Assembly (NCBI GenBank): GCA_964645535.1
Contig: CAZYCQ010000078.1
Coordinates: forward strand, 1 to 12,779
Source: an uncultured archaeon
GTDB taxonomy: Archaea > Asgardarchaeota > Heimdallarchaeia > Heimdallarchaeales > Kariarchaeaceae
Direction: 5' to 3'
Length of the DNA: 12,779 nt
Shown: positions 1-12,779 of the stretch, in pieces
Numbering within the stretch: position 1 is the stretch's first letter
Layout: every line of letters starts with the position of its first letter
Translations under genes and position numbers: made by a program
Notes under the pieces: generated by a model
Database searches by the model: none
What the model saw: the letters and a program-made list of their open reading frames with translations, nothing else
Told to the model about the DNA's origin: nothing

Positions 1-2
1 TA

Positions 3-1076
3 CCCTCCCTCATAAGAAAGGATCGGTCAAACCAATTTATCTCTGTCAATGGGAGAATTGTGAAGGTTGTTGACATCAACAAGGCAGTTGAGGAGGGATA
101 CGGTTCACGTCTTTTGAAAGGGAACCATCCTGTATTTATTGTCAATCTCAAGGGTGACAACAGTTGGGTGGATTACAATGTTCATCCACAGAAAATTGAA
201 GTGCGTTTTGAATCAAAAGACAATGTACTGGATGAAATTGCAAAACTTGTAAATCAAGTTCTTGAGGGCAACGCTAGTCTTCCCAAATTAACGGAAACCA
301 AAAGCAGACTTGTTACCAAAAATTCTCCATCTTCGATTCCAACATCTTCTTCCCCTCCCATTGCCATTTCTATTGATGAAAGAAATGATGAAGCAAAAGA
401 TTCTTTTATCCAAACCACTCTTTCTTCAATAGTTGATGGTACTGAAGAAAATCGTTACGAGGTATCCGTCCAAGTTCAAAGGGGATTCAGGGTTCTTGGC
501 CAGATCATGAAGAAATTTGCCCTTGTCGAAAAAGATGAGGAACTCTGGCTTGTCGATCTTCATGCAGCAGATGAAAGGGTAAAGTTCGAACAGTTTGCAA
601 AATCGAAAGACAAGTTGATTATGAACCAACAATTCCTGGAACCAATTAAAGTGAATTTAGGAAAGGCAGATTTGGACTTGCTCAATGAATACATCCCAAT
701 CCTGAAACAATTCGGAATGGAAATTTCAGTAACGGAAAACAATGTCTTCATCCACAGTCTTCCAGTTTACTTTGATCAAAAGATTACTGCCGAAACAATA
801 CAGAATTTTCTCTTTGACATCATTGCCTTTTATTCTGACACTCCAGAGAATATAGTTTCTTCTCCCTTTGATGACCTTGAATATAAGGTCGTATCTCGAT
901 TGGCATGTCACGGTTCTGTTAGAGCTGGAGTGTTCATTACCAATTCAAAAATCGCAGAAATTCTCTCCAACCTTCTTAAATGTCAGGATCCATGGACCTG
1001 CGCCCATGGTCGACCAACTGTAATCCGAATTGATAGACAGACCATGGAAAAATGGTTTAAACGTATTGGACAATGA
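3..1076 (+). CDS. mutL: DNA mismatch repair protein MutL, 5'-truncated (end of transducer domain, linker, C-terminal endonuclease domain)
   Basis: Frame is open from base 3 (PSLIRKDRSNQFISVNGRIVK, a MutL transducer FVNGR-like motif), so GTG 60 is not the true start. Motifs: VDYNVHPQKIEVRF, DLHAADERVKFE (DQHA-x2-E-x4-E variant), LACHGS (ACR-like), CAHGRP. Confidence 0.96.
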   Translation, partial: PSLIRKDRSNQFISVNGRIVKVVDINKAVEEGYGSRLLKGNHPVFIVNLKGDNSWVDYNVHPQKIEVRFESKDNVLDEIAKLVNQVLEGNASLPKLTETKSRLVTKNSPSSIPTSSSPPIAISIDERNDEAKDSFIQTTLSSIVDGTEENRYEVSVQVQRGFRVLGQIMKKFALVEKDEELWLVDLHAADERVKFEQFAKSKDKLIMNQQFLEPIKVNLGKADLDLLNEYIPILKQFGMEISVTENNVFIHSLPVYFDQKITAETIQNFLFDIIAFYSDTPENIVSSPFDDLEYKVVSRLACHGSVRAGVFITNSKIAEILSNLLKCQDPWTCAHGRPTVIRIDRQTMEKWFKRIGQ

Positions 1077-1078
1077 AA

Positions 1079-2218
1079 TCAGTTATTTGACATTCTTGAT
1101 TCCAATAACACTTTCAACTCGGTCTCAAATCCAAGCGTTTTCAGTGTAAGTGGAAGGAAGTCATATTCCTTGATGTATCTGATATTTTGGATGCTCATTG
1201 TGTAGGTTTTAGGTTCGTCGATGATATAGTCATGTTTGAGGTAATATCGCATGAGTTCATCATGAGCCGCATTGAACTCTTCGAAAGACCGGTGTGCGGA
1301 AATAATGAATCCGTCCAAATTTTTGGAGACATAGAAGAACGGGGCTAGGAGATTTCTCACCATTTCTGCGGCTTCCTGTCTCTGTCTCATTGTTGTTCTT
1401 GGATTGAATTTCCGGTAAGAGAAAACGAGAATCTTCATTCCAAGCTTTTGAAGGTCTGGCACTGCCCTTGGGAAGCAAATATTCTGAGCCAGGAACTTTC
1501 TTTTTGCATTTGCTACAGTGTTTCGTGAAACTCCAACTTCTTCAGCAATTAATGTATCAGATTCCTCCGGAAATTGTACCAGTCCCGTCAAAACCTTCTT
1601 TTCCGCCTTTGTTAGCTTGACGGGTTTCACCTTCCCTGTAGGGATCGTCTTTCTTTTGTCATATGGATCTGAAGCAAAACCAAACGTTTTGGCCACAAGA
1701 CTTTCATAATCCATGAATGCCCTGATTCTGGTGATTTCAAATGGGAAATGCACAACCTCCATTCCATTTTTATCCAAGAACTTATTATCTGAATATACTT
1801 GGATGAACTTTTCCTGATTCTTTGCATATTCGGTAAGGTTCTTTGATGCTGACAGATTAAATGCCTTGTTTGATTCACTGGCTATGTGAAAATCCTCAAC
1901 AAAAGTTTGCAGGAGATTCTTAGCGACTCTCATTCTTTCTTCAATGGTGGTAAACCGGTTGAGGTTTCCATGCATGGCAACAAGCAGCTCAAGACCGATT
2001 TTCGGGAAGTTCGGAACATAATATCTCTTATAATATCCGTTTTCCTTGAGCCGAGTCTTTATGGAAGAGAAAGTAGATTTCTTCATACCAATTTGTGAAT
2101 GTACTGCTTGGTCAGTCAGATCTGGCCACTTAATCAAAGAATGAAGGACACGTGCTTCATTCTGGCTCAAACCGCTTACGCGGTCATCCATTCCACTCCA
2201 TTCATCATATCTCTGCAT
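1079..2218 (-). CDS. Transcriptional regulator with two tandem Lrp/AsnC-like units (wHTH plus effector-type domain, twice)
   Basis: Internal duplication: LSQNEARVLHSLIKWPDLTDQAVHSQIGMKKSTFSSIKTRLKENGYYKRYYVPNFPKIGLELLV vs LTKAEKKVLTGLVQFPEESDTLIAEEVGVSRNTVANAKRKFLAQNICFPRAVPDLQKLGMKILV. Start placed at ATG 2218 (alternative 2191) instead of 2305 because a TTTAAG box lies at 2251-2246 on the minus strand. Confidence 0.8.
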   Translation of the reverse strand: MQRYDEWSGMDDRVSGLSQNEARVLHSLIKWPDLTDQAVHSQIGMKKSTFSSIKTRLKENGYYKRYYVPNFPKIGLELLVAMHGNLNRFTTIEERMRVAKNLLQTFVEDFHIASESNKAFNLSASKNLTEYAKNQEKFIQVYSDNKFLDKNGMEVVHFPFEITRIRAFMDYESLVAKTFGFASDPYDKRKTIPTGKVKPVKLTKAEKKVLTGLVQFPEESDTLIAEEVGVSRNTVANAKRKFLAQNICFPRAVPDLQKLGMKILVFSYRKFNPRTTMRQRQEAAEMVRNLLAPFFYVSKNLDGFIISAHRSFEEFNAAHDELMRYYLKHDYIIDEPKTYTMSIQNIRYIKEYDFLPLTLKTLGFETELKVLLESRMSNN

Positions 2219-2476
2219 GGTATACAACCAATTTAAGTAGTTCTTCTTAAAAAAGATTTTGAAAATTTTCACCAATCCAAAATCTGGAAAAATTCTCAAA
2301 AACATGCTGAAATCTGACCTGTTTCCGAGAAAACTACGTAGTGTAAATTGATGCCATTTCTTTCTTTATTCAATTAATCCATTGTTTGATGGAAGAATCT
2401 CCACTTAACCTTTTCAACAAAGTTTAGGTGTCTGCCTCTTAAGAGAAAAATTTAAGGGAAAGAAAGAGCATTGGGC
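2219..2476. promoter_or_regulatory. Divergent promoter region with TATA-like boxes and three short perfect palindromes
   Basis: TTTAAG at 2451-2456 (+, 26 nt before ATG 2477, preceded by purine-rich GAGAAAAA) and TTTAAG at 2251-2246 (-). Palindromes TGAAAATTTTCA 2260-2271, ACTACGTAGT 2333-2342, CTCTTAAGAG 2436-2445. Confidence 0.55.
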
Positions 2477-3079
2477 ATGTTGTCAACCGAAATCAAAACC
2501 TTTGTCCGTCAACTGGAAAAATGGTTTGAGGAAAATCCCCAAGAGGCCATTGACAGGGCGATTTCAGCCATGAAAGAAGCGGATGAAAAGGGCGATTATG
2601 AAGCTACTTTCCATTATGCCAAAAAATTGGCCGAATTATACGAAAAACTAGGTGATCGAACAAAATCACAGCGGATGATTGCAATAGCGACAATAAGATC
2701 TTCCTTTCTGGACAATCCTTTGGAACAGAAACGTTTGGCGGCACTTCTTGATTTGACAAGGGGTGTTTCCAAATTTGCAGCAAGTGTATTGGAAGGGCGA
2801 GGTGATGATGCTGAAAAACACTACTTTTTGTTGGAACTTGAGCAACAGTCGCTTTGGGGTGACTTTCGTAAAATCGAGCCTTTACCACTCATTGATTTTG
2901 CCAATACGGAAGAGGCCAAGATCATTCTAGAGGATTATTTTCCTCATGGTGTGTATCACCTTCATATGGTGGAAAGGAATTCTCACCAAAGAAGAAGAAT
3001 TGATATTCCAGTTGGGAAGCAAGAAAATCTGGACATTATTGATTCAGTTTATTCAGTGACAATCAAAGGAGACTTTTAA
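2477..3079 (+). CDS. Hypothetical protein, N-terminal TPR-like helical hairpin plus C-terminal alpha/beta region
   Basis: 200-codon ORF. AMKEADEKGDYEATFHYAKKLAELYEKLGDRTKSQRM has TPR/SNAP-like periodicity. ATG 2477 preferred over TTG 2471 from TATA spacing. Confidence 0.7.
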   Translation: MLSTEIKTFVRQLEKWFEENPQEAIDRAISAMKEADEKGDYEATFHYAKKLAELYEKLGDRTKSQRMIAIATIRSSFLDNPLEQKRLAALLDLTRGVSKFAASVLEGRGDDAEKHYFLLELEQQSLWGDFRKIEPLPLIDFANTEEAKIILEDYFPHGVYHLHMVERNSHQRRRIDIPVGKQENLDIIDSVYSVTIKGDF

Positions 3080-3161
3080 GTCCAACAATTCTTGATGATT
3101 GGCACATCCTGACACTCGAATTGCACAATAGATTTTAATGGAGATTTACAGATTTGATTGA

Positions 3162-4790
3162 ATGAGCCTTGGAAAAAAACCAATCGGAAAGGCAATATGG
3201 GGTACTACAACCTACCGGGTTCACTTGGAAACATCTGCAAAGACATTTTCAGAAGACATTTCTGGTGTCTTGACCCTTTACGAAAGAAGATGGGTGTCTC
3301 AGAAAGCTGAATTTGGCAATCGAAAGGAAATGATTGTGGCTTTGCGGGAGATGTGGGAATCTTCCTTGAGACAAGGTATCATTCAAGATGCGCGGTTTGC
3401 AAGATGGTTGGAAGAATATCTAAACGAACTTGGCATTCCTGTCGACTACGAAGATGTTCTCAAAGTTGTCAAAGGCGAAGTGGAAACTGAAGTTAATGTA
3501 TCTCAAATTTCCCCTGAAGAACTCGTCCAATTACTTGAAAGCGAAAAGGATCTTGATGCAGAAGAATTGCAAACAATAGATGAACACACAGAAGGAATCG
3601 TGACTTCCGGGGTTTCCATTGGTTTCGTTAGAGAAGTTGGCAAAGATCAATCGGAAGAAATCCTTCATACATTAGCAGAAAAATACAAACCTACACCTAA
3701 TTTAAGCTCCAAAAGCTCTGTCAAATTCCTTGATGCCAATGGTGAAAAGAAAGAAGTGGTTCAAGACAACCCCATCGTTTCTTCCCCAACGACTGGCTTT
3801 ATGATACAGAAAGTAGGATTTGTTAACCCTTTTGGATCAGCAACAACTAATGTGGAAATCGAAACAAACATCCCGTATGATTTCGAACTTCTTGAATTTA
3901 ACATTGAGGGGCCTCTCTCTCGTATCGGCGAAAATAAATCCAAGGAAGGGCTACAAATCAAATGGCAGGCAGATACACTTGCGCCAGGTCAAAAAGTTGA
4001 GATACTGTTCCGACTGCTTCCTCGAATTGTTCGTACAGTAATCATACAACATCCTACCTTCGCCCGTATTTATCGTGTTTTTGAACCTCTTCAAAAGACC
4101 GAACAAGGCTATCGATGTGAAAGCAAAATTTCAAACCCAACTGCCTCTTCACTTGATTCCTTAGTTATTCTTGATCAAATTCCACGTTTCCTGAACATCA
4201 AATCTTCCGAACCTCCTATCAACCCGCCATTGGCTTCAGTAAACCTGACAGAAGAATCAATTGAAGTTAATTGGATGTTTCATGACATCGGTCCGGAATC
4301 TACGCTGACTATTCAATACGAACTTGAAGACAGACCTTACCTTGTAAGGGACATATACGTTGTTAACACACCAGAATCAGTTCCAATTTTCGAAGGCTTA
4401 AAATTGGTCAAACCCTTAAGGCGCCAATCTGGGTTCGGCATTATTTTCGGATGCAGGGGGTTACGTGATATTCAACAAACTGTGATCATTGAAGACCGAA
4501 TTCCAAAAGATGTCAAGGTTTCCATAATAGATACTACAGTTGGTGACATGACAGTAAGGGAGGAAGGCGATGAAATAGTTGTCAAATGGGAGATCAAAGG
4601 TATTAGAAGAGGGAAAGAGGAATTTGCATATTTAAAATATAAACCCGAGAACCAACTTGAAAGTACCGTTCTCAATATTGCGATCGAAGATCAAAAAGCA
4701 ATCTCCATTTCAAAAGAAGCAACCTCCCGAAAAGCCGATTCAATCGTAATGCCAAGAAAATTCATTGAAGAACTTGATGTCAAACCCTGA
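3162..4790 (+). CDS. Hypothetical cytoplasmic protein: novel N-terminal domain, acidic linker, three Ig-like beta-sandwich repeats (adaptin mu-homology/DUF11-like)
   Basis: 542-aa ORF with no obvious signal peptide or TM helix. Three repeats: NVEIETNIPYDF..IKWQADTLAPGQKVEILFRL; LVILDQIPRFL..VNWMFHDIGPESTLTIQYEL; VIIEDRIPKDV..VKWEIKGIRRGKEEFAYLKY. TTTTAATG box at 3133-3140. Confidence 0.75.
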   Translation: MSLGKKPIGKAIWGTTTYRVHLETSAKTFSEDISGVLTLYERRWVSQKAEFGNRKEMIVALREMWESSLRQGIIQDARFARWLEEYLNELGIPVDYEDVLKVVKGEVETEVNVSQISPEELVQLLESEKDLDAEELQTIDEHTEGIVTSGVSIGFVREVGKDQSEEILHTLAEKYKPTPNLSSKSSVKFLDANGEKKEVVQDNPIVSSPTTGFMIQKVGFVNPFGSATTNVEIETNIPYDFELLEFNIEGPLSRIGENKSKEGLQIKWQADTLAPGQKVEILFRLLPRIVRTVIIQHPTFARIYRVFEPLQKTEQGYRCESKISNPTASSLDSLVILDQIPRFLNIKSSEPPINPPLASVNLTEESIEVNWMFHDIGPESTLTIQYELEDRPYLVRDIYVVNTPESVPIFEGLKLVKPLRRQSGFGIIFGCRGLRDIQQTVIIEDRIPKDVKVSIIDTTVGDMTVREEGDEIVVKWEIKGIRRGKEEFAYLKYKPENQLESTVLNIAIEDQKAISISKEATSRKADSIVMPRKFIEELDVKP

Positions 4791-4809
4791 TCTTTCAATT
4801 ATTAACTAG

Positions 4810-4818
4810 CCTTATAAC
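4810..4818 (+). promoter_or_regulatory. Putative TATA box CCTTATAAC for the RHH/recombinase-like gene pair
   Basis: About 32 nt upstream of ATG 4844; the identical 9-mer occurs at 7821-7829 upstream of gpmI. Confidence 0.55.
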
Positions 4819-4843
4819 GTCAAATGAGAATATAGTCATAAGA

Positions 4844-5548
4844 ATGTCCGATTCAACGGAGAAGGGCAACCTTCCTATTCCTCCAACATCCAACAAAAGC
4901 AAATCAGATGAGGAACTAATTCCAAAAGGGAAATCAACATCCTATATTCATGTACGGGTAGATCCCCAATTTAAGGAAGATCTAATGAAAAAGGTCGAGG
5001 AAGAAAAAACCAATTTGACTGCTTTTGTAGTCAATACACTTTCAGATGCAATCTACAAGACTGATGAAGAGGAAGAGGACAAGGAAGAAAAGTTATTGGA
5101 TGAAATTCTGAATTCTATGGAAAAGTTGGAAAGAAGGATCGAAATTCGTTTGTCAACCCTTCAAGATACCTTCAACTCACTCATTGGACGGTTAATTGAT
5201 TTTGAGAACAGGGATCGTCAGAGACGAAAGAGACGAAAGGCAGGTGATGGTGAAAAAGATAATGAGGACACCATTTCTCTTGAAAATGAAAATATCCTGA
5301 AACTTGAGCCTGAAAAGATCATCTATGCAAGAGTCAAACGCTATATTGAAAACAGGGGTGCAGCAAACTTCCCTGAATTTGAAGAGATTCTTGCCCATCT
5401 TGAAACGGATAGCAGGATTAAGGAATATCTGGATCAACAGAGTGCCAATTTTCCGGGATGGAAGGAATCATTGGTCACAGATGCCATTGAAGAGGCGATT
5501 GAGGAGCTTGGTATCTCAGTGATCAAGAAGGGAGGTGAAAAGAAATAG
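4844..5548 (+). CDS. Ribbon-helix-helix (CopG/ParG-like) DNA-binding protein with coiled coil and C-terminal helical domain
   Basis: SYIHVRVDPQFKEDLMKKVEEEKTNLTAFVVNTLSDAI fits the RHH pattern (alternating beta strand, helix, turn, helix). Followed by an acidic run, heptad segment LLDEILNSMEKLERRIEIRLSTLQDTFNSL and basic RQRRKRRK. Confidence 0.75.
   Translation: MSDSTEKGNLPIPPTSNKSKSDEELIPKGKSTSYIHVRVDPQFKEDLMKKVEEEKTNLTAFVVNTLSDAIYKTDEEEEDKEEKLLDEILNSMEKLERRIEIRLSTLQDTFNSLIGRLIDFENRDRQRRKRRKAGDGEKDNEDTISLENENILKLEPEKIIYARVKRYIENRGAANFPEFEEILAHLETDSRIKEYLDQQSANFPGWKESLVTDAIEEAIEELGISVIKKGGEKK
5531..5538 (+). promoter_or_regulatory. Shine-Dalgarno-like GGAGGTGA at the 3' end of the RHH gene
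   Basis: Full match to the prokaryotic SD consensus, 6 nt upstream of an ATA (5545) that is in frame with the downstream gene. Confidence 0.55.
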
Positions 5549-5601
5549 CCAGAAAACCCTTTGTTCGAAGAAAATCAAATGAGAAAAGAAATGAGGAAGC
5601 C

Positions 5602-7116
5602 TTGGACATTTTCAAGCTTTTCAATCGATTGAGACCAAACACTCGCAAGAAGTACCTGAAAATCATAAATAGATTTGGTCAATTCTTGATAATACACAAA
5701 AAATCCCTTTGGGATGCCACTGCATTGGATGTGAAGAAATATCTTCTTCAAGAAGGTGATGCACAGGCTCGAAGTATATTGAAAACATTTTATCGTGTTT
5801 TAATTGAATCCGGTGAGTTCGAAGGGGATAATCCCGTCATCATACTTGAAAACATAGAGGAAGAAGAACGAAAGCACGGTATCGAGCAAAAAGATCAAGT
5901 TACAACCGCAGAAACAGTTTTGCAAAGTCTTAATCCGGAAATCGATACACAAATGATTGAGGACTCCAAAAAGCCTCAACCAAAGAAGAAGCTCCCCAAA
6001 AGAATTATGACCCTTGCGGATCTGGAAATGTTGCTCAAACGTACAACACATATCCGTGAAAAGGCAATACTTGAAATTCTGTTTTTCACGGGTGCTCGTC
6101 TGAAGGAAATTGTGGATCTGAATGTTTCTGATGTAGATTTGGATGGAAAGAAAATTCTCTTCTTTGAAAACAACCAGGAAATTTCGAGGGCAATAGCCAT
6201 TCCAAAACGGGCGCTTCCTTTTTTGAAACTTTATGAAAGGTGGCGCTACCGTCAATTGTCACCTTCTAATGCATACTTCATAACCAAAAAAACAAAGGAA
6301 CGAATGAATGTTTCCACAATATCTACTTGGCTCTATCGGATACAGAGAGACAAAGAGCCCGAAGCTCGATGGACTGCCACTGATTTTAGAAAACGGGCAA
6401 TATTGCAACATTATTGGTTAACCAAGGATCTCGCCTCTGTAACTCGTTTTGCAGGATACAAACGTCCTGAAGCAACTTTACGTGTTGTGAACCAAATCCT
6501 CATGGATAGGGGGATTGAGACATTAGATGAATTGGCAAACCTTCCTGAATTTGAAGAACTCGAAAAAGACAGAAGGAAGGCAAGCACAAGGTTGGAGGAA
6601 CAATCCACCACAATTACCATAAACTTGACCCCTGACGAACTAGAAATGATCCGAAAATCTGGACTTACTCCTACACAGGCAGTTAAGACGGTCATTTCCC
6701 TCAAAGACCTCTATTCCGCATTTGCACCTGTTGCAGCAGCACCCTCTACCGCTTCCTCTCCTCTTGCCGCTGCGATGAATGTAGGAAAGCCTGGTGGAAT
6801 GCCAAGTTTGGGGTCATCCAAATCTAAACCATCCAAACCTCTGAAACCAAAAGGTCCTGGTCCTAGTGGCCCCCGTCCCGGTCCACGACCTGGACCTGGT
6901 CCCGGTCCTGTTGGAGGTGGAGGTGGACTGTCATTCTTGGCAGAACTGAAATCGAAGCTTCAAGCTAGAAACAAAGAGCAAGCAGAAAAGAAATCTGAGA
7001 TTACGGTTGGTCCCAAAGATCATTTTGCAAATGTCAAAATTGTCGACAAGGACGCACCAGAAGAGCAGAAAGAAGAGTCCAACCAAGAAGAAGGAAAGGA
7101 GGAGAATCAAAGCTAA
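5602..7116 (+). CDS. Xer-like tyrosine recombinase homologue, predicted catalytically inactive, with C-terminal RHH-like, Pro/Gly-rich, amphipathic-helix and acidic extensions (true start possibly ATA 5545)
   Basis: Core-binding-domain motif LRPNTRKKYLKIINRF, KKLPKRIMT linker, box I REKAILEILFFTGARLKEIVDLNVSDVD, and degenerate box II ATDFRKRA...DLASVTRFAGYKRPEATLRV. Intact 504-aa ORF. Confidence 0.85.
   Translation: MDIFKLFNRLRPNTRKKYLKIINRFGQFLIIHKKSLWDATALDVKKYLLQEGDAQARSILKTFYRVLIESGEFEGDNPVIILENIEEEERKHGIEQKDQVTTAETVLQSLNPEIDTQMIEDSKKPQPKKKLPKRIMTLADLEMLLKRTTHIREKAILEILFFTGARLKEIVDLNVSDVDLDGKKILFFENNQEISRAIAIPKRALPFLKLYERWRYRQLSPSNAYFITKKTKERMNVSTISTWLYRIQRDKEPEARWTATDFRKRAILQHYWLTKDLASVTRFAGYKRPEATLRVVNQILMDRGIETLDELANLPEFEELEKDRRKASTRLEEQSTTITINLTPDELEMIRKSGLTPTQAVKTVISLKDLYSAFAPVAAAPSTASSPLAAAMNVGKPGGMPSLGSSKSKPSKPLKPKGPGPSGPRPGPRPGPGPGPVGGGGGLSFLAELKSKLQARNKEQAEKKSEITVGPKDHFANVKIVDKDAPEEQKEESNQEEGKEENQS
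6853..6927 (+). repeat. Coding low-complexity Gly-Pro repeat (GPGPSGPRPGPRPGPGPGPVGGGGG)
   Basis: Local GC-rich patch; repeat units use varied synonymous codons (ggt cct, ggc ccc, ggt cca, gga cct, ggt ccc). Confidence 0.9.
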
Positions 7117-7155
7117 TTGATTATATTTTTATGAGCTAACGACAACAAACCATAT

Positions 7156-7458
7156 ATGGAGGATGAGCTATTTTATAGAAACTTAAAGGTCAACATCCTT
7201 GAGATGATGAAACCTAGTGCCGCAAGGAGAAACAGACCGAAGTTGACAGATGTGGATTTTTTGGCTAAACTTAAACCACTTTACATGTTGAGCAACAGAA
7301 AACCAACTCCTGAAGAAGCAATGAATTGCTTGGATGAACTTATTGCCAAAGGATTGGTAAGAGAGGGGAAAATGGATGCGGTTAAAATTTGGTCAATAAC
7401 AGACAAGGGGGTTGAGGTATTGAAGGAACTTTCGCATGGGGAAGAAGTTGATCTTTAG
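7156..7458 (+). CDS. Small winged-helix protein (PadR/MarR-like wing)
   Basis: EAMNCLDELIAKGLVRE...KIWSITDKGVEVLKEL matches the wHTH pattern L..L...GLV.....Y.LT..G...L. AT-rich TATA-like stretch at 7121-7132. Confidence 0.75.
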   Translation: MEDELFYRNLKVNILEMMKPSAARRNRPKLTDVDFLAKLKPLYMLSNRKPTPEEAMNCLDELIAKGLVREGKMDAVKIWSITDKGVEVLKELSHGEEVDL

Positions 7459-7712
7459 GATTCTCCTTTCAATGCTGATATAATTACTTCCCCCTCTGAT
7501 TTTTCCAATTCATTACTGAGTATCAAACTGTTGATGATCTCTATCAATTGATCATGGTTTTCAAATGAATAGCGAAGAAAATCGATTTTCATCCTTTGAT
7601 TCAATTCTTCCTTTCCCAAAATCGTCTCAACCATTGTCTTAAAAATCATCGCATCCGTCAATTTTTTAGTTTCCTCTTCCCTTATATCTGCCATATCTTG
7701 GAAACCTTGCAT
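7455..7712 (-). CDS. Small helical hypothetical protein
   Basis: Fills the gap between the wHTH gene and gpmI and overlaps the convergent gene by 4 bp at the stop codons. ATG 7712 has a CTTAAAT box about 29 nt upstream (GTG 7721 is an alternative start). Confidence 0.6.
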   Translation of the reverse strand: MQGFQDMADIREEETKKLTDAMIFKTMVETILGKEELNQRMKIDFLRYSFENHDQLIEIINSLILSNELEKSEGEVIISALKGES

Positions 7713-7850
7713 AATTTTCACTGAATTGTGTACGATTTAAGAACGTTTTGGGAACAACTTCGTAAAAAAACCGCGGAAAATTGCGAACTCTGTCCTGCCT
7801 GAATGAGTCTATAGCTGAGACCTTATAACTAATGGACTGGATACAAAGTC

Positions 7851-9416
7851 ATGGTGGAAGCTAAAAAAGCCGTTCTGATTATTATCGACGGTTTTGGCTA
7901 TTCTGAGAAGAAACAAGGCAATGCAATCACACTAGCTTCAACACCGAACTGGGATCAGATGCTGTCAAAATATCCTTGGACACTTCTCGAAGCCTCAGGG
8001 AATGCTGTTGGACTTCCAGATGGGGTGATGGGCAATAGCGAGGTCGGCCACTTGACAATTGGATCTGGAAGAATTGAATTTCAAAGTTTTGAAAAGATCA
8101 ACCAAGCAATAAAAAATAAAAAGTTAGGCAAGAACGAACGGCTTCAGGATCTAATCACAAAATCAGGTACAAAAAATGGTGTTGTACATCTCATGGGATT
8201 AACCAGCTTTGGAGGAGTTCATTCTCATTACAGTCATCTGATCGCACTTCTAGATGTTCTTTCCCAATCCCCCAAAATCAAGAAGATTTACGTTCATGCG
8301 TTTACTGATGGACGCGATGTGTCCCCCCACAGTTCAGTCAAGGATATCAGTAAGCTTCTTGAAGATCTGAACAATTCTGATAAGGCCGTTCTTTCAGACA
8401 TTGTGGGAAGATTTTATGCCATGGATCGTGATAAAAGATGGGAACGAACCAAGGTTGCCTATGACATGCTAACACAACCTCGATCCCCTGATCAAATCGT
8501 TTCAAATCCGATCAAGGAAATCAAGAAACGGTACGAAAGTGGTGAAACTGATGAATTTCTTAAACCCATTCTTCTTACTGATGAAGGGATTGTAAGGGAT
8601 GGGGATACCATCTTATTTTTCAATTTCAGACCTGATAGGGCAAGGCAATTGTCACAATTCTTTTTGTTTCCTGAACGTTTCAAAGAATACGGTGCAAAAA
8701 AAATTGACAATCTAGATTATTATACCATGACAGAGTATGATCCTGAATTTCCTGCCACTGTTCTCTTCCCTGAGGAAAAATTGAACATGACTTTGGCGGA
8801 ATACTGCTCTAAATTGGGATTAAAGCAAATCCATATCGCTGAAACAGAAAAATATGCACATGTCACATATTTCCTCAATGGTGGTTGGGAGGAACCATTC
8901 CCAAACGAGGATCGTGTTCTTGTACCAAGTAAACGGAATTTCCCGACTTATGACCTCATTCCAGAAATGAGTACAAAAGAGATTTCCGAGGAAGTCATAA
9001 AGGCTATGAACTCTGACCGCAATTATTCCCTGATTGTGTGCAACTTTGCGTCTCCAGATATGGTTGGACATACAGGAAATCTTGATGCGACCATCAAAGC
9101 AGTAGAAATCCTTGATGAAGTGCTTGGGAATGTATTGCAAGAAGCACAATCAAAAGGATACACCTTGTTTATTACAGCAGATCACGGAAACGCAGAAAAG
9201 ATGGTGGATGAAAATGGCAACCCTTTCACAGCACATACTACCAATAAAGTTCCATTTTTAGTTACTGATACTGATATTTCCCTATCTCCTGGAGGACTTT
9301 CCGATGTTGCCCCAACTCTGCTCCACTTCTGTGGTTTGCCTAAACCCCCTGAAATGACGGGAAAATCTCTTATTGTCCACCAACCCAACTTATCATTAAA
9401 AAACAAGCTGTCCTAG
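7851..9416 (+). CDS. gpmI: 2,3-bisphosphoglycerate-independent phosphoglycerate mutase (bacterial GpmI type)
   Basis: LIIIDGFG, VGLPDGVMGNSEVGH (catalytic Ser), GGVHSH, FTDGRD, GRFYAMDRD, NFRPDRARQ, AETEKYAHVTYF, PDMVGHTG, TADHGNAE, TAHT. Confidence 0.98.
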   Translation: MVEAKKAVLIIIDGFGYSEKKQGNAITLASTPNWDQMLSKYPWTLLEASGNAVGLPDGVMGNSEVGHLTIGSGRIEFQSFEKINQAIKNKKLGKNERLQDLITKSGTKNGVVHLMGLTSFGGVHSHYSHLIALLDVLSQSPKIKKIYVHAFTDGRDVSPHSSVKDISKLLEDLNNSDKAVLSDIVGRFYAMDRDKRWERTKVAYDMLTQPRSPDQIVSNPIKEIKKRYESGETDEFLKPILLTDEGIVRDGDTILFFNFRPDRARQLSQFFLFPERFKEYGAKKIDNLDYYTMTEYDPEFPATVLFPEEKLNMTLAEYCSKLGLKQIHIAETEKYAHVTYFLNGGWEEPFPNEDRVLVPSKRNFPTYDLIPEMSTKEISEEVIKAMNSDRNYSLIVCNFASPDMVGHTGNLDATIKAVEILDEVLGNVLQEAQSKGYTLFITADHGNAEKMVDENGNPFTAHTTNKVPFLVTDTDISLSPGGLSDVAPTLLHFCGLPKPPEMTGKSLIVHQPNLSLKNKLS

Positions 9417-9421
9417 GAAGG

Positions 9422-10063
9422 TTGTTGTCCAAGATCGTTCTTAAATTAATCAGGCATGGAAAAACCGATTGGAACCGTTTCAAACGCCTTCAAGGTCATC
9501 TTGATATCCCTATCAACGAGGAAGGTATCAAACAAGCCAAGGCCATGGCTCAACTGTTAGACAAACAGAAAATTGACCACATCTACAGTTCGGATTTATC
9601 TCGATGCCGGCAAACGGCGGCTTATCTCAGGCTCAATCATCCTGAAGCGGTCTACCATGAGACAGAGGAATTTCGTGAAGGTAATGCAGGAATCCTTGGA
9701 GGTAAGGCGATTGGAAATTTCATGAAATCTGAAATCCAATCACTCAGCTCGTTGAAACAGTTTTTTACGCATTATGGGGAAACCATGGAGGATGTTTATG
9801 GAAGAGTTTGGAAAAAACTTGATCAAGTGGTGAAGTCACTCCATTCCGCAAAAGAAAACCGACCTGTAACTGTGGCAGTGGTATCTCATGGAGGCCCAAT
9901 ACGAATGATTTTGGCCAAGCTGATGGGATATTACCCCAATCGGTTAAATGAAGCGGCATCTGAAATAAAAGTAAACAATTGTTCCGTCACTACCATTGAA
10001 ATTCAGAATGGGATTTGGGAACTTCGTGAGTACAATTTTATAGATCATCTTCAGGATGTGTGA
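9422..10063 (+). CDS. Histidine phosphatase superfamily protein (GpmB/PhoE/CobC-like)
   Basis: LIRHGKTDWN...LQG, SSDLSRCRQTA, FRE, GET, VSHGG, NCS motifs; starts 5 bp after the gpmI stop. Confidence 0.93.
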   Translation: MLSKIVLKLIRHGKTDWNRFKRLQGHLDIPINEEGIKQAKAMAQLLDKQKIDHIYSSDLSRCRQTAAYLRLNHPEAVYHETEEFREGNAGILGGKAIGNFMKSEIQSLSSLKQFFTHYGETMEDVYGRVWKKLDQVVKSLHSAKENRPVTVAVVSHGGPIRMILAKLMGYYPNRLNEAASEIKVNNCSVTTIEIQNGIWELREYNFIDHLQDV

Positions 10064-10080
10064 AAAGGGTTTCTTAATTC

Positions 10081-10105
10081 AGTGCTCTTCCAGAGCGCTT
10101 TAATT
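10081..10105 (+). terminator. Possible hairpin terminator or operator between the phosphatase gene and pepP
   Basis: AGTGCTCT-tcc-AGAGCGCT (8-bp stem with one G-U pair) followed by TTAATT, which also overlaps the likely pepP TATA box (TTTAAT 10099-10104). Confidence 0.35.
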
Positions 10106-10120
10106 CTTCCATTGAATTGA

Positions 10121-11440
10121 ATGTTTATGGAATTGTCTCAAGAAGTTTATAAAAGACGTCGCGACGCATTGATGGAAAGAATGGATGATGGAATAATGAT
10201 CCTTCCCTCAAATCCAGAATCCATAATGAGTAATGATGTCCACTATGTGTATCGACAAAATTCCAATGTGATTTATCTGACAGGATTCAAAGAGCCAAAT
10301 ACCGTAGTCATTTTGTTAAAGAAGGATGAAGAACAAAAATTCATTATGTTTGTTCCTCCCAGAGACCCTGCAACTGAAATTTGGAATGGCAGGAGAGAAG
10401 GTGTGGAAGGTGCAAAAAAAAGATTCCATGCTGATGATGCATTTTCAATTGAATCAATTGAAGAGCAATTGCCTGAACTTATCAATGGTTCCCAGAAACT
10501 CTATTATACTTTTGGCGTAAATCCTGAAATTGATGAGCTGGTGCTGAAATTACAGAACCAATTGAAACAAAAACGTGGATATTCATTTCCAACTCATATC
10601 ATTGACCCTGAACCTCTTCTTCATGAAATGAGACTCATCAAGTCGAAAGAAGAAATAGAGATAATGAAGAAAGGGTCTAAAATATCAATTGAAGCTCATC
10701 TTGAGGCAATCAAATCTACAAAACCTGGAATGTTTGAATTTGAAATCGAAGCAATTTACGACTACATTTTCAAAAAAAATGGGGCTAAACGTGCAGCTTA
10801 TCCTTCAATAGTGGGTTCAGGGAAAAACGCAACGATTCTTCATTACATTACCAACGATTCAGAACTGCGGGAAGGTGATTTGCTGCTTGTCGATGCAGGA
10901 TGCGAATACAATGACTATGCAATTGACATCACAAGGACATGGCCAATTTCCGGGAAATTCTCAGAAACTCAGAAAACAATTTACCAAATCGTCCTTTCCA
11001 TTCAAGAAGAATGCATCGAAAAATGTTTGGAAGGAGCAAAATTTGGAGATTTACATGATCATTGCGTTAAAAGAATCAGTGAAGAACTAATCAACATTGG
11101 ATTACTTGAAGGGCCTGTAGAAAAAGTCATTGAGGAAGAAACCTACAAAAAGTTCTTCATGCATGGTTTGGGTCACAATCTCGGTATTGATACACATGAT
11201 GTTTCTCGTATCCCTTTGAAAGAAACGATTTTGAAGGAAGGGATGGTGGTAACCATTGAACCAGGCATCTATATTCCAGATTCCGAAGAAATTCCTGAAG
11301 AATATCGGGGCATAGGTGTTCGTATTGAAGATGATATAGTTATCACCAAGAATGGTCCATTGAATTTGACTGATGCTCTTCCCAAATCCATTGAGGAAAT
11401 TGAGAATCTGGTGGGTAATGGTCAATTATTCAAAGATTAG
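10121..11440 (+). CDS. pepP: Xaa-Pro aminopeptidase (aminopeptidase P, M24B)
   Basis: N-terminal domain motif YRQNSNVIYLTGFKEP...EIWNG; metal-ligand motifs VDAG, AIDITRT, HGLGHNLGIDTHD, TIEPG, GVRIEDD. ATG 10127 is an alternative start. Confidence 0.96.
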   Translation: MFMELSQEVYKRRRDALMERMDDGIMILPSNPESIMSNDVHYVYRQNSNVIYLTGFKEPNTVVILLKKDEEQKFIMFVPPRDPATEIWNGRREGVEGAKKRFHADDAFSIESIEEQLPELINGSQKLYYTFGVNPEIDELVLKLQNQLKQKRGYSFPTHIIDPEPLLHEMRLIKSKEEIEIMKKGSKISIEAHLEAIKSTKPGMFEFEIEAIYDYIFKKNGAKRAAYPSIVGSGKNATILHYITNDSELREGDLLLVDAGCEYNDYAIDITRTWPISGKFSETQKTIYQIVLSIQEECIEKCLEGAKFGDLHDHCVKRISEELINIGLLEGPVEKVIEEETYKKFFMHGLGHNLGIDTHDVSRIPLKETILKEGMVVTIEPGIYIPDSEEIPEEYRGIGVRIEDDIVITKNGPLNLTDALPKSIEEIENLVGNGQLFKD

Positions 11441-11803
11441 ATCTTCGGTACTTTGAACGGCAGGATACCTTTCCATCATTCTTTTTCCAAAATTATCAAT
11501 CTGCTCAATTATATCACAAAGAACCATCCCAAATTCACCAATAAAATAGGTGTGGTGGGGAGGGTTAATGGTTTTTTTCTCCACTATTCCATGAGTCATA
11601 AAATCAGAAAGCAATCCAGATAGTACGGACGCCGAGATGCCTGGTACTCGCTGTTTTATTTCACCGAATGTCAAGGGTGAATGAGTAAGTTCATGAAGAA
11701 CTTTAATTGCCCATTTCTTTCCGATCAACCTAAGGGTCTCTTCCACATGTTTTGGAAGATCTCCTACATTTTCATCAAAATCCACGAGTCTACTTTCCTC
11801 CAA
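11426..11803 (-). CDS. HxlR-family winged-helix transcriptional regulator
   Basis: VEETLRLIGKKWAIKVLHEL...FGEIKQRVPGISASVLSGLL....HGIVEK matches the HxlR pattern. TTG start; 15-bp convergent overlap with pepP. Confidence 0.88.
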   Translation of the reverse strand: MEESRLVDFDENVGDLPKHVEETLRLIGKKWAIKVLHELTHSPLTFGEIKQRVPGISASVLSGLLSDFMTHGIVEKKTINPPHHTYFIGEFGMVLCDIIEQIDNFGKRMMERYPAVQSTEDLIFE

Positions 11804-11937
11804 TCAATTAAAAGCTTTTCAGGCAAAAGACCAAATATTTTCACTGTTTTTCAAAAACCCATTTTTTGTAGTGTGATTTCAAACCTAGTAAAAACAATCC
11901 AAATACTCTTTTAAAGCAATAAACCCGTGATTATATT

Positions 11938-12693
11938 GTGGGCTCTGAAAGTTTGTCCTTCAAGGCAAGTTGTCCAAAATGCGGAATGACGGAGCAGATC
12001 AAATTCACTCCCCCAAAAGAAAACGTGAAGCCAAAGATTCCTGGTCTCCCAGTTCCGAAAATCAAAACCGAAGATTTGTTCTCAATTTCGTATAACCATA
12101 AAGACCATACACTCATAATAAATTTCAATCGATCTGGAGAAATCCAATCTTCCCAAACAATGAACCGGATTGATCGATCAATCGAAAGCTTGTCTGCAAA
12201 ACTTGCCCAGCAGGCAATTAATTTGGCTCAAGAAGTCGGATCAAAAGATATTGAAATCATAATTGTTTCTTCATCCGAGGATTTGGGAGAAATCATTAAG
12301 ACCTTGGGAGGTCTTTTATTTCGGAATGTCCCTACAAACATCAATTTGGAAATTGTTAGAAGTCGGACTGGATCAAAGATCAATATTGGTTCGTTGGCAA
12401 TTAGCCACTATCTGGAACCGATTCAAGTATTGGCAAATGTTCTTCAGAGAGATCAGGTCTTTGTTGTTATTGATGGAAGAAAAGGTGTCAAATGGGAATT
12501 CAATTTTAAACCTCCTCAAAGCTTTTTGATTGTTGAATCACTCGCTTCCCTTACTGATAATTCCGTTCCCGAACTTTCCAGGATAATTGACGAAATCAAA
12601 CCCACTTCATTTTTCCAAGCAAATTCCAATATTGAACTGATCAATTCTCTTTCAAATGTCCTCACTTTTGTTTCCATGTCTTTGGACGTCTGA
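11938..12693 (+). CDS. Hypothetical protein with N-terminal CxxC...HxxH putative zinc-binding domain
   Basis: CPKC...NHKDHTLIINFNRSGEI. TTTTAAAG box at 11909-11916, about 28 nt before the GTG start. Confidence 0.75.
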   Translation: MGSESLSFKASCPKCGMTEQIKFTPPKENVKPKIPGLPVPKIKTEDLFSISYNHKDHTLIINFNRSGEIQSSQTMNRIDRSIESLSAKLAQQAINLAQEVGSKDIEIIIVSSSEDLGEIIKTLGGLLFRNVPTNINLEIVRSRTGSKINIGSLAISHYLEPIQVLANVLQRDQVFVVIDGRKGVKWEFNFKPPQSFLIVESLASLTDNSVPELSRIIDEIKPTSFFQANSNIELINSLSNVLTFVSMSLDV

Positions 12694-12779
12694 TAACCTG
12701 CAAGAACCTCTTAGGGCTAAGTGAAGAGAAAAGAGCTAAGATTATACTATTACAAAGGGTAAAGAAAGTTTCACTTAAA

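Follow-up and report, generated by a model that had tools for sequence, protein, structure and literature searches.

Here we describe a pair of neighboring genes, g3 and g4, within a 12,779-nucleotide (nt) stretch of DNA from an uncultured archaeon of the family Kariarchaeaceae (Asgardarchaeota; Heimdallarchaeia; Heimdallarchaeales). The stretch, hereafter referred to as the window, comes from a hot-spring metagenome-assembled genome (MAG) (NCBI GenBank assembly GCA_964645535.1, contig CAZYCQ010000078.1, positions 1 to 12,779 of the forward strand). Among public sequencing runs, those listed as containing it are DNA contigs of a single hot-spring study, with no RNA data set among them. As judged by sequence comparison, the two genes form a real, lineage-restricted, domesticated, and noncatalytic module, in which g4 retains the fold of a tyrosine recombinase without its active site and g3 encodes a ribbon-helix-helix (RHH)-like/coiled-coil partner. 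The pair is part of a run of five open reading frames (ORFs), g1 to g5, which an initial annotation made from the DNA alone had proposed to be a single chromosome-anchoring or segregation system. We favor as probable, if well short of certain, the explanation that the block consists of three units and that g3-g4 is a domesticated, non-cutting integrase-accessory module. The features of the pair are as follows (amino acids [aa] of g4 are counted from TTG 5602).

Positions 4844 to 5548, plus strand: g3, 234 aa, RHH-like/coiled-coil protein, obligate upstream partner of g4.
g3, approximately aa 31 to 72: RHH-like N-domain.
g3, between the RHH-like N-domain and the coiled coil: acidic linker.
g3, approximately aa 85 to 120: highly conserved coiled-coil helix.
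g3, between the coiled coil and the C-domain: basic/acidic linker.
g3, approximately aa 156 to 225: small helical C-domain.
Positions 5531 to 5538, plus strand: Shine-Dalgarno (SD)-like element GGAGGTGA, 6 nt upstream of ATA, conserved in three species of the genus.
Positions 5545 to 5547, plus strand: putative noncanonical ATA start of g4, overlapping the g3 stop codon TAG at 5546 to 5548.
Positions 5545 to 7116, plus strand: g4, recombinase-like, 504 aa from TTG 5602 or approximately 523 aa from ATA 5545.
Positions 5602 to 5880, plus strand: g4 core-binding (SAM-like) domain, aa 1 to 93, with weak PF02899 and PF13495 matches and an AlphaFold2 (AF2) predicted local distance difference test score (pLDDT) of 76 to 90.
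Positions 6013 to 6561, plus strand: g4 catalytic-fold domain without an active site.
Positions 6607 to 6726, plus strand: g4 strand-helix-helix segment, aa 336 to 375, the most constrained part of the protein.
Positions 6727 to 6924, plus strand: g4 Pro/Gly/Ser/Ala-rich disordered linker, 58 to 141 aa among orthologues.
Positions 6925 to 6987, plus strand: g4 basic amphipathic helix, aa 442 to 462, conserved, diverged in the window's genus.
Positions 6988 to 7113, plus strand: g4 acidic tail.

The g4 protein matches PF00589 (Phage_integrase) with 48.2 bits (E value, 1.4e-12; cutoff, 27.1), and a Foldseek search with its AF2 model returned XerA, Cre, and XerD as top matches (XerA 5hxy; E value, 5.3e-7). 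The catalytic columns were read from an alignment of g4 that also contained three intact integrases and the Xer protein encoded in the same genome. R166 (positions 6097 to 6099) is retained in the window and is Q or K in most orthologues, while the His of the HxxR motif is replaced by T260 (6379 to 6381; T or M across 17 orthologues), the second His by Y286 (6457 to 6459; Y or F), and the nucleophilic Tyr by V295 (6484 to 6486; V, L, or I). The β-hairpin Lys is absent from all 17 orthologues in the alignment, so that most orthologues lack four or five of the six catalytic residues, and R263 (6388 to 6390) and its neighbors are the sole catalytic-site residues that are invariant across the 17. 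The initial description of the protein as catalytically dead is thus confirmed, and the gene is chromosomal and conserved as well. Because the defining catalytic set was looked for and is absent, g4 is, on the evidence of its sequence, not a functional member of the Xer family; in line with this, its scores against the NCBIfam equivalogs for XerA (66.7; cutoff, 220) and XerD (59.3; cutoff, 329.6) are low, and a canonical Xer with all catalytic residues is encoded elsewhere in the genome (L044).

The reading frames are intact in 13 genomes from two families, at 31 to 82% identity. With genome G002 as the reference and with synonymous divergence (pS) saturated, the catalytic-fold domain showed a nonsynonymous divergence (pN) of 0.09 and the strand-helix-helix segment one of 0.054, compared to 0.24 for iPGM and 0.21 for the M24 peptidase. 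The catalytic-fold domain carries a net charge of +5 to +14 and the N-terminal arm one of +5 to +6, and the tail is acidic (-6 to -19). The strand-helix-helix segment is RHH-like by pattern only: a 13-sequence profile of aa 336 to 375 had no pertinent match in PDB or Pfam (E values up to 10), and the AF2 monomer shows two helices and no strand in this region.

Turning to the partner protein, the initial assignment of g3 as an RHH protein finds weak support in a match of its N-domain to NCBIfam YlcI_YnfO_N that stays below the cutoff (E value, 6.3e-6; 26.1 bits; cutoff, 30) and in PDB matches to SvtR (2kel; E value, 0.013) and ArtA (E value, 0.076). The coupling to the recombinase-like gene that had also been claimed is supported. 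All families were searched for in 41 related genomes and then in 400 Asgard genomes, with the window's own family referred to as f1, a sister family as f2, and a further family as f4. Orthologues of g4 (E value below 1e-60) were found in 13 of the 400 genomes, in f1 and f4, and full-length relatives of g3 were detected by profile in exactly these 13. The two genes are adjacent and in the same order in 13/13 genomes having either of them; in all 12 fetched loci and in G006, the pair shares a strand, with g3 directly preceding g4. In wider searches, the g3 profile matched only 11 loci across 185,579 species genomes and five clusters at an E value of <1e-30 among 1.84 billion proteins. By these searches, g3-g4 is limited to Heimdallarchaeia of the Kariarchaeaceae type and to a single sister family (f4).

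A 23-nt direct repeat, 91% identical between positions 5363 to 5385 in g3 and 6535 to 6557 in g4, encodes a near-identical short peptide in the two genes. The g4 copy is conserved family-wide and the g3 copy is confined to the window's genus, a distribution that suggests a local copy or conversion event.

The pair is flanked by chromosomal housekeeping genes (MutS, MutL, GGT, an Rpb5 fusion, and DUF2797), and its neighbors vary between families. The commonest neighbor, located divergently upstream in five other genera, encodes a coiled-coil protein of approximately 227 aa (L015 8224-9015; G000 C12:28912-29592) that 40 of the order's 41 genomes encode and that has no linkage to the pair in the window's genome. 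In the conserved Rpb5 neighbor (approximately 440 to 500 aa; L016 4837-6333, minus strand, with members in L014, L015, L018, and L020 to L023), the C-terminal domain of RNA polymerase subunit Rpb5 is joined to Mrr-type and inactive restriction-endonuclease-like domains, making the protein an unusual extended form of archaeal RpoH.

The g3-g4 junction itself points to translational coupling. In most genera, the gap between the two genes is 0 to 12 nt or the genes overlap, and g4 begins with ATG or GTG preceded by a purine-rich SD-like element. In the window's genus (three species), the codon at the homologous position is ATA, which overlaps the g3 stop codon as ATAG. The 19 codons after the ATA encode the conserved basic arm, with a pN of 0.06 to 0.08 and saturated pS. 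We therefore think that g4 is probably translated from this noncanonical ATA by termination-reinitiation. In G003, no start codon occupies the position of TTG 5602, and this accounts for the absence of approximately 48 N-terminal residues from the database model of its orthologue (P0010). Automated gene calls start late in other cases as well, and the window's own g4 orthologue is listed as a 476-aa protein (P0006). A programmed -1 frameshift from g3 into g4 was considered and rejected, as a slippery site is present in the window only and ATAG with the SD-like element is kept in all three species; with no slippery site conserved, a g3-g4 frameshift fusion is unlikely.

A possible source of the module is found in G009, a genome from a sister genus that carries at least seven copies of an accessory-integrase gene pair on short contigs, at the following loci.

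L039, positions 171 to 1557: accessory-integrase pair.
L040, positions 683 to 2183: accessory-integrase pair.
L042, positions 1675 to 2884: accessory-integrase pair.
L036, L037, L038, and L041: further accessory-integrase pairs.

The accessory proteins (116 to 215 aa) begin with an RHH-like region, followed by a coiled coil and a small C-domain, and their genes overlap those of the integrases, which are 281 to 306 aa long and have an intact R..HxxR..H..Y set. The g3 family aligns with the accessories over its whole length (hhalign probability, 96.8%; E value, 2.2e-10; 172 columns), and the integrases are the best nonorthologous matches of g4 among relatives. Several of the pairs are nearly identical copies, which suggests recent activity. 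No tRNA was found near the element copies, and a query of IMG/VR with the G009 accessory protein returned no relative. Since both genes of the pair thus have intact counterparts in multicopy elements, the simplest reading of the sequences is that an integrase-accessory module was domesticated in the ancestor of f1 and f4. Matches of the accessory profile in Loki-type genomes were dropped, as they cover the RHH part only, are unlinked to integrases, and are in some cases fused to histidine-kinase-like regions. Aloposons, which are defined by giant genes, integration into tRNA genes, and a ParA-like gene (PMC8813620), were rejected as the source element, as all three hallmarks are absent here.

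As for the remainder of the block, the other ORFs in and next to it are listed below.

Positions 2471 to 3079, plus strand: g1, 202 aa (ATG at 2477).
Positions 3162 to 4790, plus strand: g2, 542 aa.
Positions 7156 to 7458, plus strand: g5, 100 aa, small winged-helix-like protein.
Positions 7455 to 7721, minus strand: g6, convergent ORF of 88 aa with a 4-nt overlap with the g5 stop.

The five ORFs g1 to g5 span positions 2471 to 7458 on the plus strand between housekeeping genes, as first described. Together, however, they occur solely in G000, G002, and G003, which belong to the window's genus, and even in G003 the gene order (g1-g5-g2-g3-g4) is unlike that in the other two genomes. An apparent loss of g1 to g4 in G001 was rejected as an assembly break, the contig ending 311 bp beyond g5. 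Outside the genus, the block falls apart into units. In f2, g1 overlaps the start of g2 in 8/8 loci examined, in surroundings of GGR, LysRS, and glycosyltransferase genes, and g3-g4 was not found in 31 f2 genomes (25 to 31 f2 genomes in the case of the g4 orthologue search). Of the order's 41 genomes, 39 carry g2, and linkage of g2 to g3-g4 is seen in the window's genus only; we regard g1-g2, from these occurrences, as an old overlapping operon that is found across the whole Heimdall-group order. The g5 gene pairs with g1 in most genera of f1, adjoining it in eight other f1 genomes, mostly in divergent orientation, and in f4 the units are located on different contigs. The synteny and co-occurrence search that had been suggested as a check of the five-gene system therefore did not uphold it: the five genes are syntenic inside one genus only, and the g1-g2 operon exists without g3-g4. 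Comparative sequence data thus indicate that three independently conserved units, and not one system, lie side by side in this genus alone, within a conserved housekeeping region.

Neither g1 nor g2 could be assigned to a family. The g1 protein has a helical N-terminal half and an alpha/beta C-terminal half, and its initial description as a tetratricopeptide repeat (TPR)-like protein stays a lead, as the TPR hits in the Atlas scored 0.77 to 0.82 and thus below 0.9. For g2, the predicted triple beta-sandwich is borne out by the AF2 model (pLDDT, 82.6), in which an N-terminal alpha/beta part (approximately aa 1 to 175) precedes three beta-sandwiches (approximately aa 182 to 525). The alpha/beta part consists of two small domains, the first of which (approximately 100 aa) recurs in order-wide paralogues of 440 to 560 aa. 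The third sandwich (aa 396 to 521; positions 4347 to 4724) aligns best with the mu-homology domains of AP2, AP1, and COPI (Z score, 10.8; root-mean-square deviation, 3.1 Å; 118 residues), a likeness that is not decisive because unrelated carbohydrate-binding sandwiches reach a Z score of 9.6. The Atlas neighbors of g2 are DUF11/CARDB proteins with TM scores below 0.25, and a feature search of the ESM Atlas for g2 gave nothing usable. The label of g5 as a winged helix-turn-helix protein derives from Pfam matches below threshold and is weak.

Scans of the window for families, repeats, and tRNAs agreed with the initial report that the region holds no tRNA gene, att remnant, transposase, or replication or viral gene. 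Specifically, no tRNA genes were detected in the window, and Pfam, PHROGs, and PADLOC searches with the window proteins found no transposase, replication, or viral families apart from the integrase family itself. Integrase families were the only PHROGs matches, and for g4 alone, and none of the six proteins g1 to g6 matched a PADLOC defense model. Repeat arrays, iterons, and att-like long or terminal repeats were likewise not found in the window, and its composition shows no break except for a GC-rich Pro/Gly tract within g4, whose Pro/Gly/Ser/Ala-rich linker accounts for the GC peak at positions 6501 to 7000. An A/T-rich TATA-like box is located 20 to 35 nt upstream of g1, g2, g3, and g5, whereas g4 has the SD-like element instead, so that the original caveat that most of the genes have their own box holds.

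Upstream of the block are a MutL C-terminal fragment and a TrmB-like gene, and downstream are g6, iPGM, a histidine phosphatase (His_Phos_1), the M24 peptidase, and an HxlR regulator. The TrmB-like regulator (408 aa; positions 1079 to 2305, minus strand) shares 96.5% identity with its G002 orthologue, compared to 50 to 80% for its neighbors; with a pN of 0.04 and saturated pS, this reflects extreme constraint and not recent transfer. In G003 and G007, the TrmB-like gene is located directly downstream of g4. The position of g6 is kept in both further species of the genus included in the comparison (G001 and G002), at 27 to 39% identity.

How might the pair work? In the explanation we favor, unit 1 would be g1-g2, the old order-wide operon; unit 2 would be g5, a small winged-helix protein usually found beside g1; and unit 3 would be g3-g4, derived from a mobile-element pair of an RHH/coiled-coil accessory and a tyrosine integrase. 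The active site of g4 has been lost, with the DNA-clamping fold, the basic N-terminal arm, and the strand-helix-helix segment remaining under strong purifying selection, and the protein has gained a long disordered tail with a basic helix and an acidic end. The g3 and g4 proteins may then come together at specific chromosomal sequences, forming an architectural or adaptor complex that does not cut DNA, and short motifs of the g4 tail may recruit a host partner. Prediction of a complex between g4 (aa 1 to 395) and g3, both given as alignments, reached a score of 0.41, and the best of three controls scored 0.00. In a benchmark, 58 of 80 solved complexes and 2 of 110 mismatched pairs attained the mark used, but scores of 0.60 or lower came from just 7 of those 80 solved complexes and from both mismatches. 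Contact agreement between the runs was at least 47%, and the pLDDT of the partner was at least 66. With gene coupling providing a strong prior, we take this prediction as mildly positive.

Several points weigh against this explanation. Taken by itself, the complex prediction is a weak pass. Next to the observed loss of catalytic residues, conservation, co-occurrence, gene coupling, and homology to an intact integrase pair, the binding of DNA by g3-g4 is predicted from fold and charge, and no conserved repeats or palindromes that might serve as a DNA target were found near the pair in the window. The active integrase pairs come from a single MAG that is 63% complete, and the direction and donor of the domestication therefore rest on few data. 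Finally, in G006 and G007 the g1-g5 pair is located 6 to 19 kb from g3-g4 on the same contig, and within the family the units may be loosely associated at the regional level.

The last observation is also one of the few in favor of the original idea of a single five-gene system for anchoring or segregating the chromosome, with its motor supplied in trans, as are the co-orientation and adjacency of the genes in three species of one genus and the presence of three proteins with DNA-binding-type folds. Such a system is hard to reconcile with the 31 f2 genomes, in which the g1-g2 operon exists and g3-g4 was not found, with the separate contigs of the units in f4, and with a gene order that varies even inside the genus. 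In addition, no ParA-, ParM-, or SegA-type NTPase gene lies beside the pair in 12 loci, and a scan of the window found no centromere-like repeat arrays; we consider a single system very improbable. The opposite view, that the locus is the decaying remnant of an integrated element, with an integrase pseudogene and its cargo, would fit an integrase-derived family whose active relatives exist as multicopy elements. This reading has virtually no chance of being correct and is refuted in practice by conservation, considering the intact frames in 13 genomes of two families, a pN below that of housekeeping genes, the conserved chromosomal context, and the lack of a tRNA or att-like repeat in the window; the initial annotation had itself named a strain-specific decayed element as what would speak against it, and the block, conserved in relatives and without att-like borders, is no such element. 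It is also conceivable that g4 is still engaged in recombination, either by assisting or regulating XerA at dif without cutting DNA itself or by using residues supplied in trans. The invariant R263, a conserved DFR motif common to g4 and its active relatives, and the canonical Xer in the genome speak for such a role, but most orthologues have lost four or five of the six catalytic positions, no evidence links g4 with Xer, and the f2 genomes do without g3-g4, making this highly unlikely.

More weight has to be given to the possibility that g3-g4 is a plain transcription regulator, of a regulon or of itself, which retains the regulatory role of RHH accessories in mobile elements and has no structural role in the chromosome. 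The likeness of g3 to the viral regulator SvtR and to ArtA, the pair's own promoter-like box upstream of g3, and neighbors that differ between families would all agree with this. It would leave unexplained a disordered tail of 130 to 270 aa with three conserved short motifs, as well as the upkeep of a whole two-domain recombinase clamp under tighter constraint than that on enzymes, and we regard it as unlikely. The tail itself has suggested another role. It is composed of the linker, the basic helix, a short Gly-Gly-Lys-Ile-type motif, and the acidic stretch, and in other genera it ends with a hydrophobic-Pro-Asp/Thr-Phe C terminus that is absent from the window's genus. The helix was compared to the F-actin-binding (FAB) motif of human VASP (residues 259 to 278, as printed in PMC10340426) by ungapped BLOSUM62 scoring against the 16-residue VASP core, with 1.7 million windows from the six-frame ORFs of the genome as the background. 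In 6 of the 17 orthologues (LC_2-type and f4-type), the score was 39 to 42, with 9 or 10 of 16 residues identical and a background maximum of 32, and the helix is preceded, as in VASP, by a Pro/Gly-rich tract and a Gly run; moreover, actin is encoded in the genome. These features raise the possibility that g3-g4 tethers DNA to Asgard actin via an EVH2-like (VASP FAB-type) tail helix. Against it, the window's own helix scores 18 to 22, which is background level; the best scores for the G-actin-binding (GAB) motif of VASP in the orthologues are 9 to 20, each matched by hundreds of background windows; and Pfam detects no EVH1 or tetramerization domain. The longest Pro run is 1 to 3 residues in all orthologues, none exceeding 3, and there is therefore no classical profilin site. 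Helices of this basic amphipathic type could just as well interact with DNA, with membrane, or with the acidic tail of g4 itself, and the FAB match was picked post hoc. A scan of the window's genome revealed no other proteins with FAB-like helices, and neither EVH2-like proteins nor dead recombinases were found to be described for Asgard archaea in the literature searched. We therefore view a tether to actin as improbable, and the fuller version, a DNA-to-cytoskeleton adaptor that clamps chromosomal sites and binds Asgard actin filaments with an ancestral VASP-FAB-like helix, as a long shot; the actin idea is a lead that fits other family members better than the window's copy.

Comparison with known systems helps to place the domesticated module. 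With XerA and XerC-XerD (5hxy, 4a8e, and 1a0p; NF040815), g4 shares the two-domain arrangement of a core-binding and a catalytic fold. Unlike these enzymes, it is without the Tyr, both His residues, and the Lys, with the first Arg lost in most orthologues, and it has an interdomain insert of approximately 45 aa, the strand-helix-helix module, the long disordered tail, and an obligate RHH partner gene. Yeast Ndc10, a component of the CBF3 kinetochore complex, uses a noncatalytic tyrosine-recombinase-like fold to bind DNA and scaffolds proteins. This is a looser parallel in terms of how the protein works, as Ndc10 is eukaryotic, has no RHH partner, and is of independent origin; a match to it in sequence or structure was neither looked for nor found. 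The G009 pairs (L039, L040, and L042) resemble g3-g4 in their two-gene layout, overlapping genes, and the DFR motif of the integrase, but have an intact catalytic set and no tail and are multicopy on short contigs, whereas g3-g4 is single copy, fixed in place, and dead. The closest documented parallel is TnsF of Tn6022-like Tn7 elements, an inactivated tyrosine-recombinase derivative that binds DNA sequence specifically and whose active ancestor survives in the Tsy element (PMC10293859). As with g3-g4, a dead recombinase derivative acts, or in our case may act, as a DNA binder while the active ancestor persists in a related mobile element. TnsF, however, is a transposon target selector with zinc fingers, and the g3-g4 pair belongs to the host chromosome and has no genes for transposition in its vicinity. 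The resemblance to the EVH2 region of Ena/VASP proteins consists of a Gly run and a basic amphipathic helix downstream of a Pro/Gly-rich tract, with 9 or 10 of 16 residues identical in 6/17 orthologues; the FAB likeness is not kept in the window's genus, and a GAB motif above background, poly-Pro, EVH1, and a tetramerization domain are all missing. Similarly, the NTPase motor and centromere repeats that characterize ParABS, ParMRC, and SegAB cassettes were found neither beside g3-g4 (12 loci) nor in the window, respectively. In the literature searched, we found no host-domesticated archaeal dead recombinase with a partner protein.

In summary, recognizing the five-gene arrangement as a probable genus-level coincidence spares all-against-all interaction screens and directs attention to g3-g4, in which both genes of an integrase-accessory module appear to have been kept together. 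Since intact relatives seem to be still mobile in a sister genome, the domestication is open to study on both sides. The g4 tail with its conserved motifs, in a lineage close to eukaryotes, offers a cheap and concrete test of a contact between a DNA binder and actin in Asgard archaea; should the DNA-to-cytoskeleton adaptor model prove true, Heimdall-group archaea would have an actin-based means of DNA positioning or segregation made from a mobile-element recombinase.

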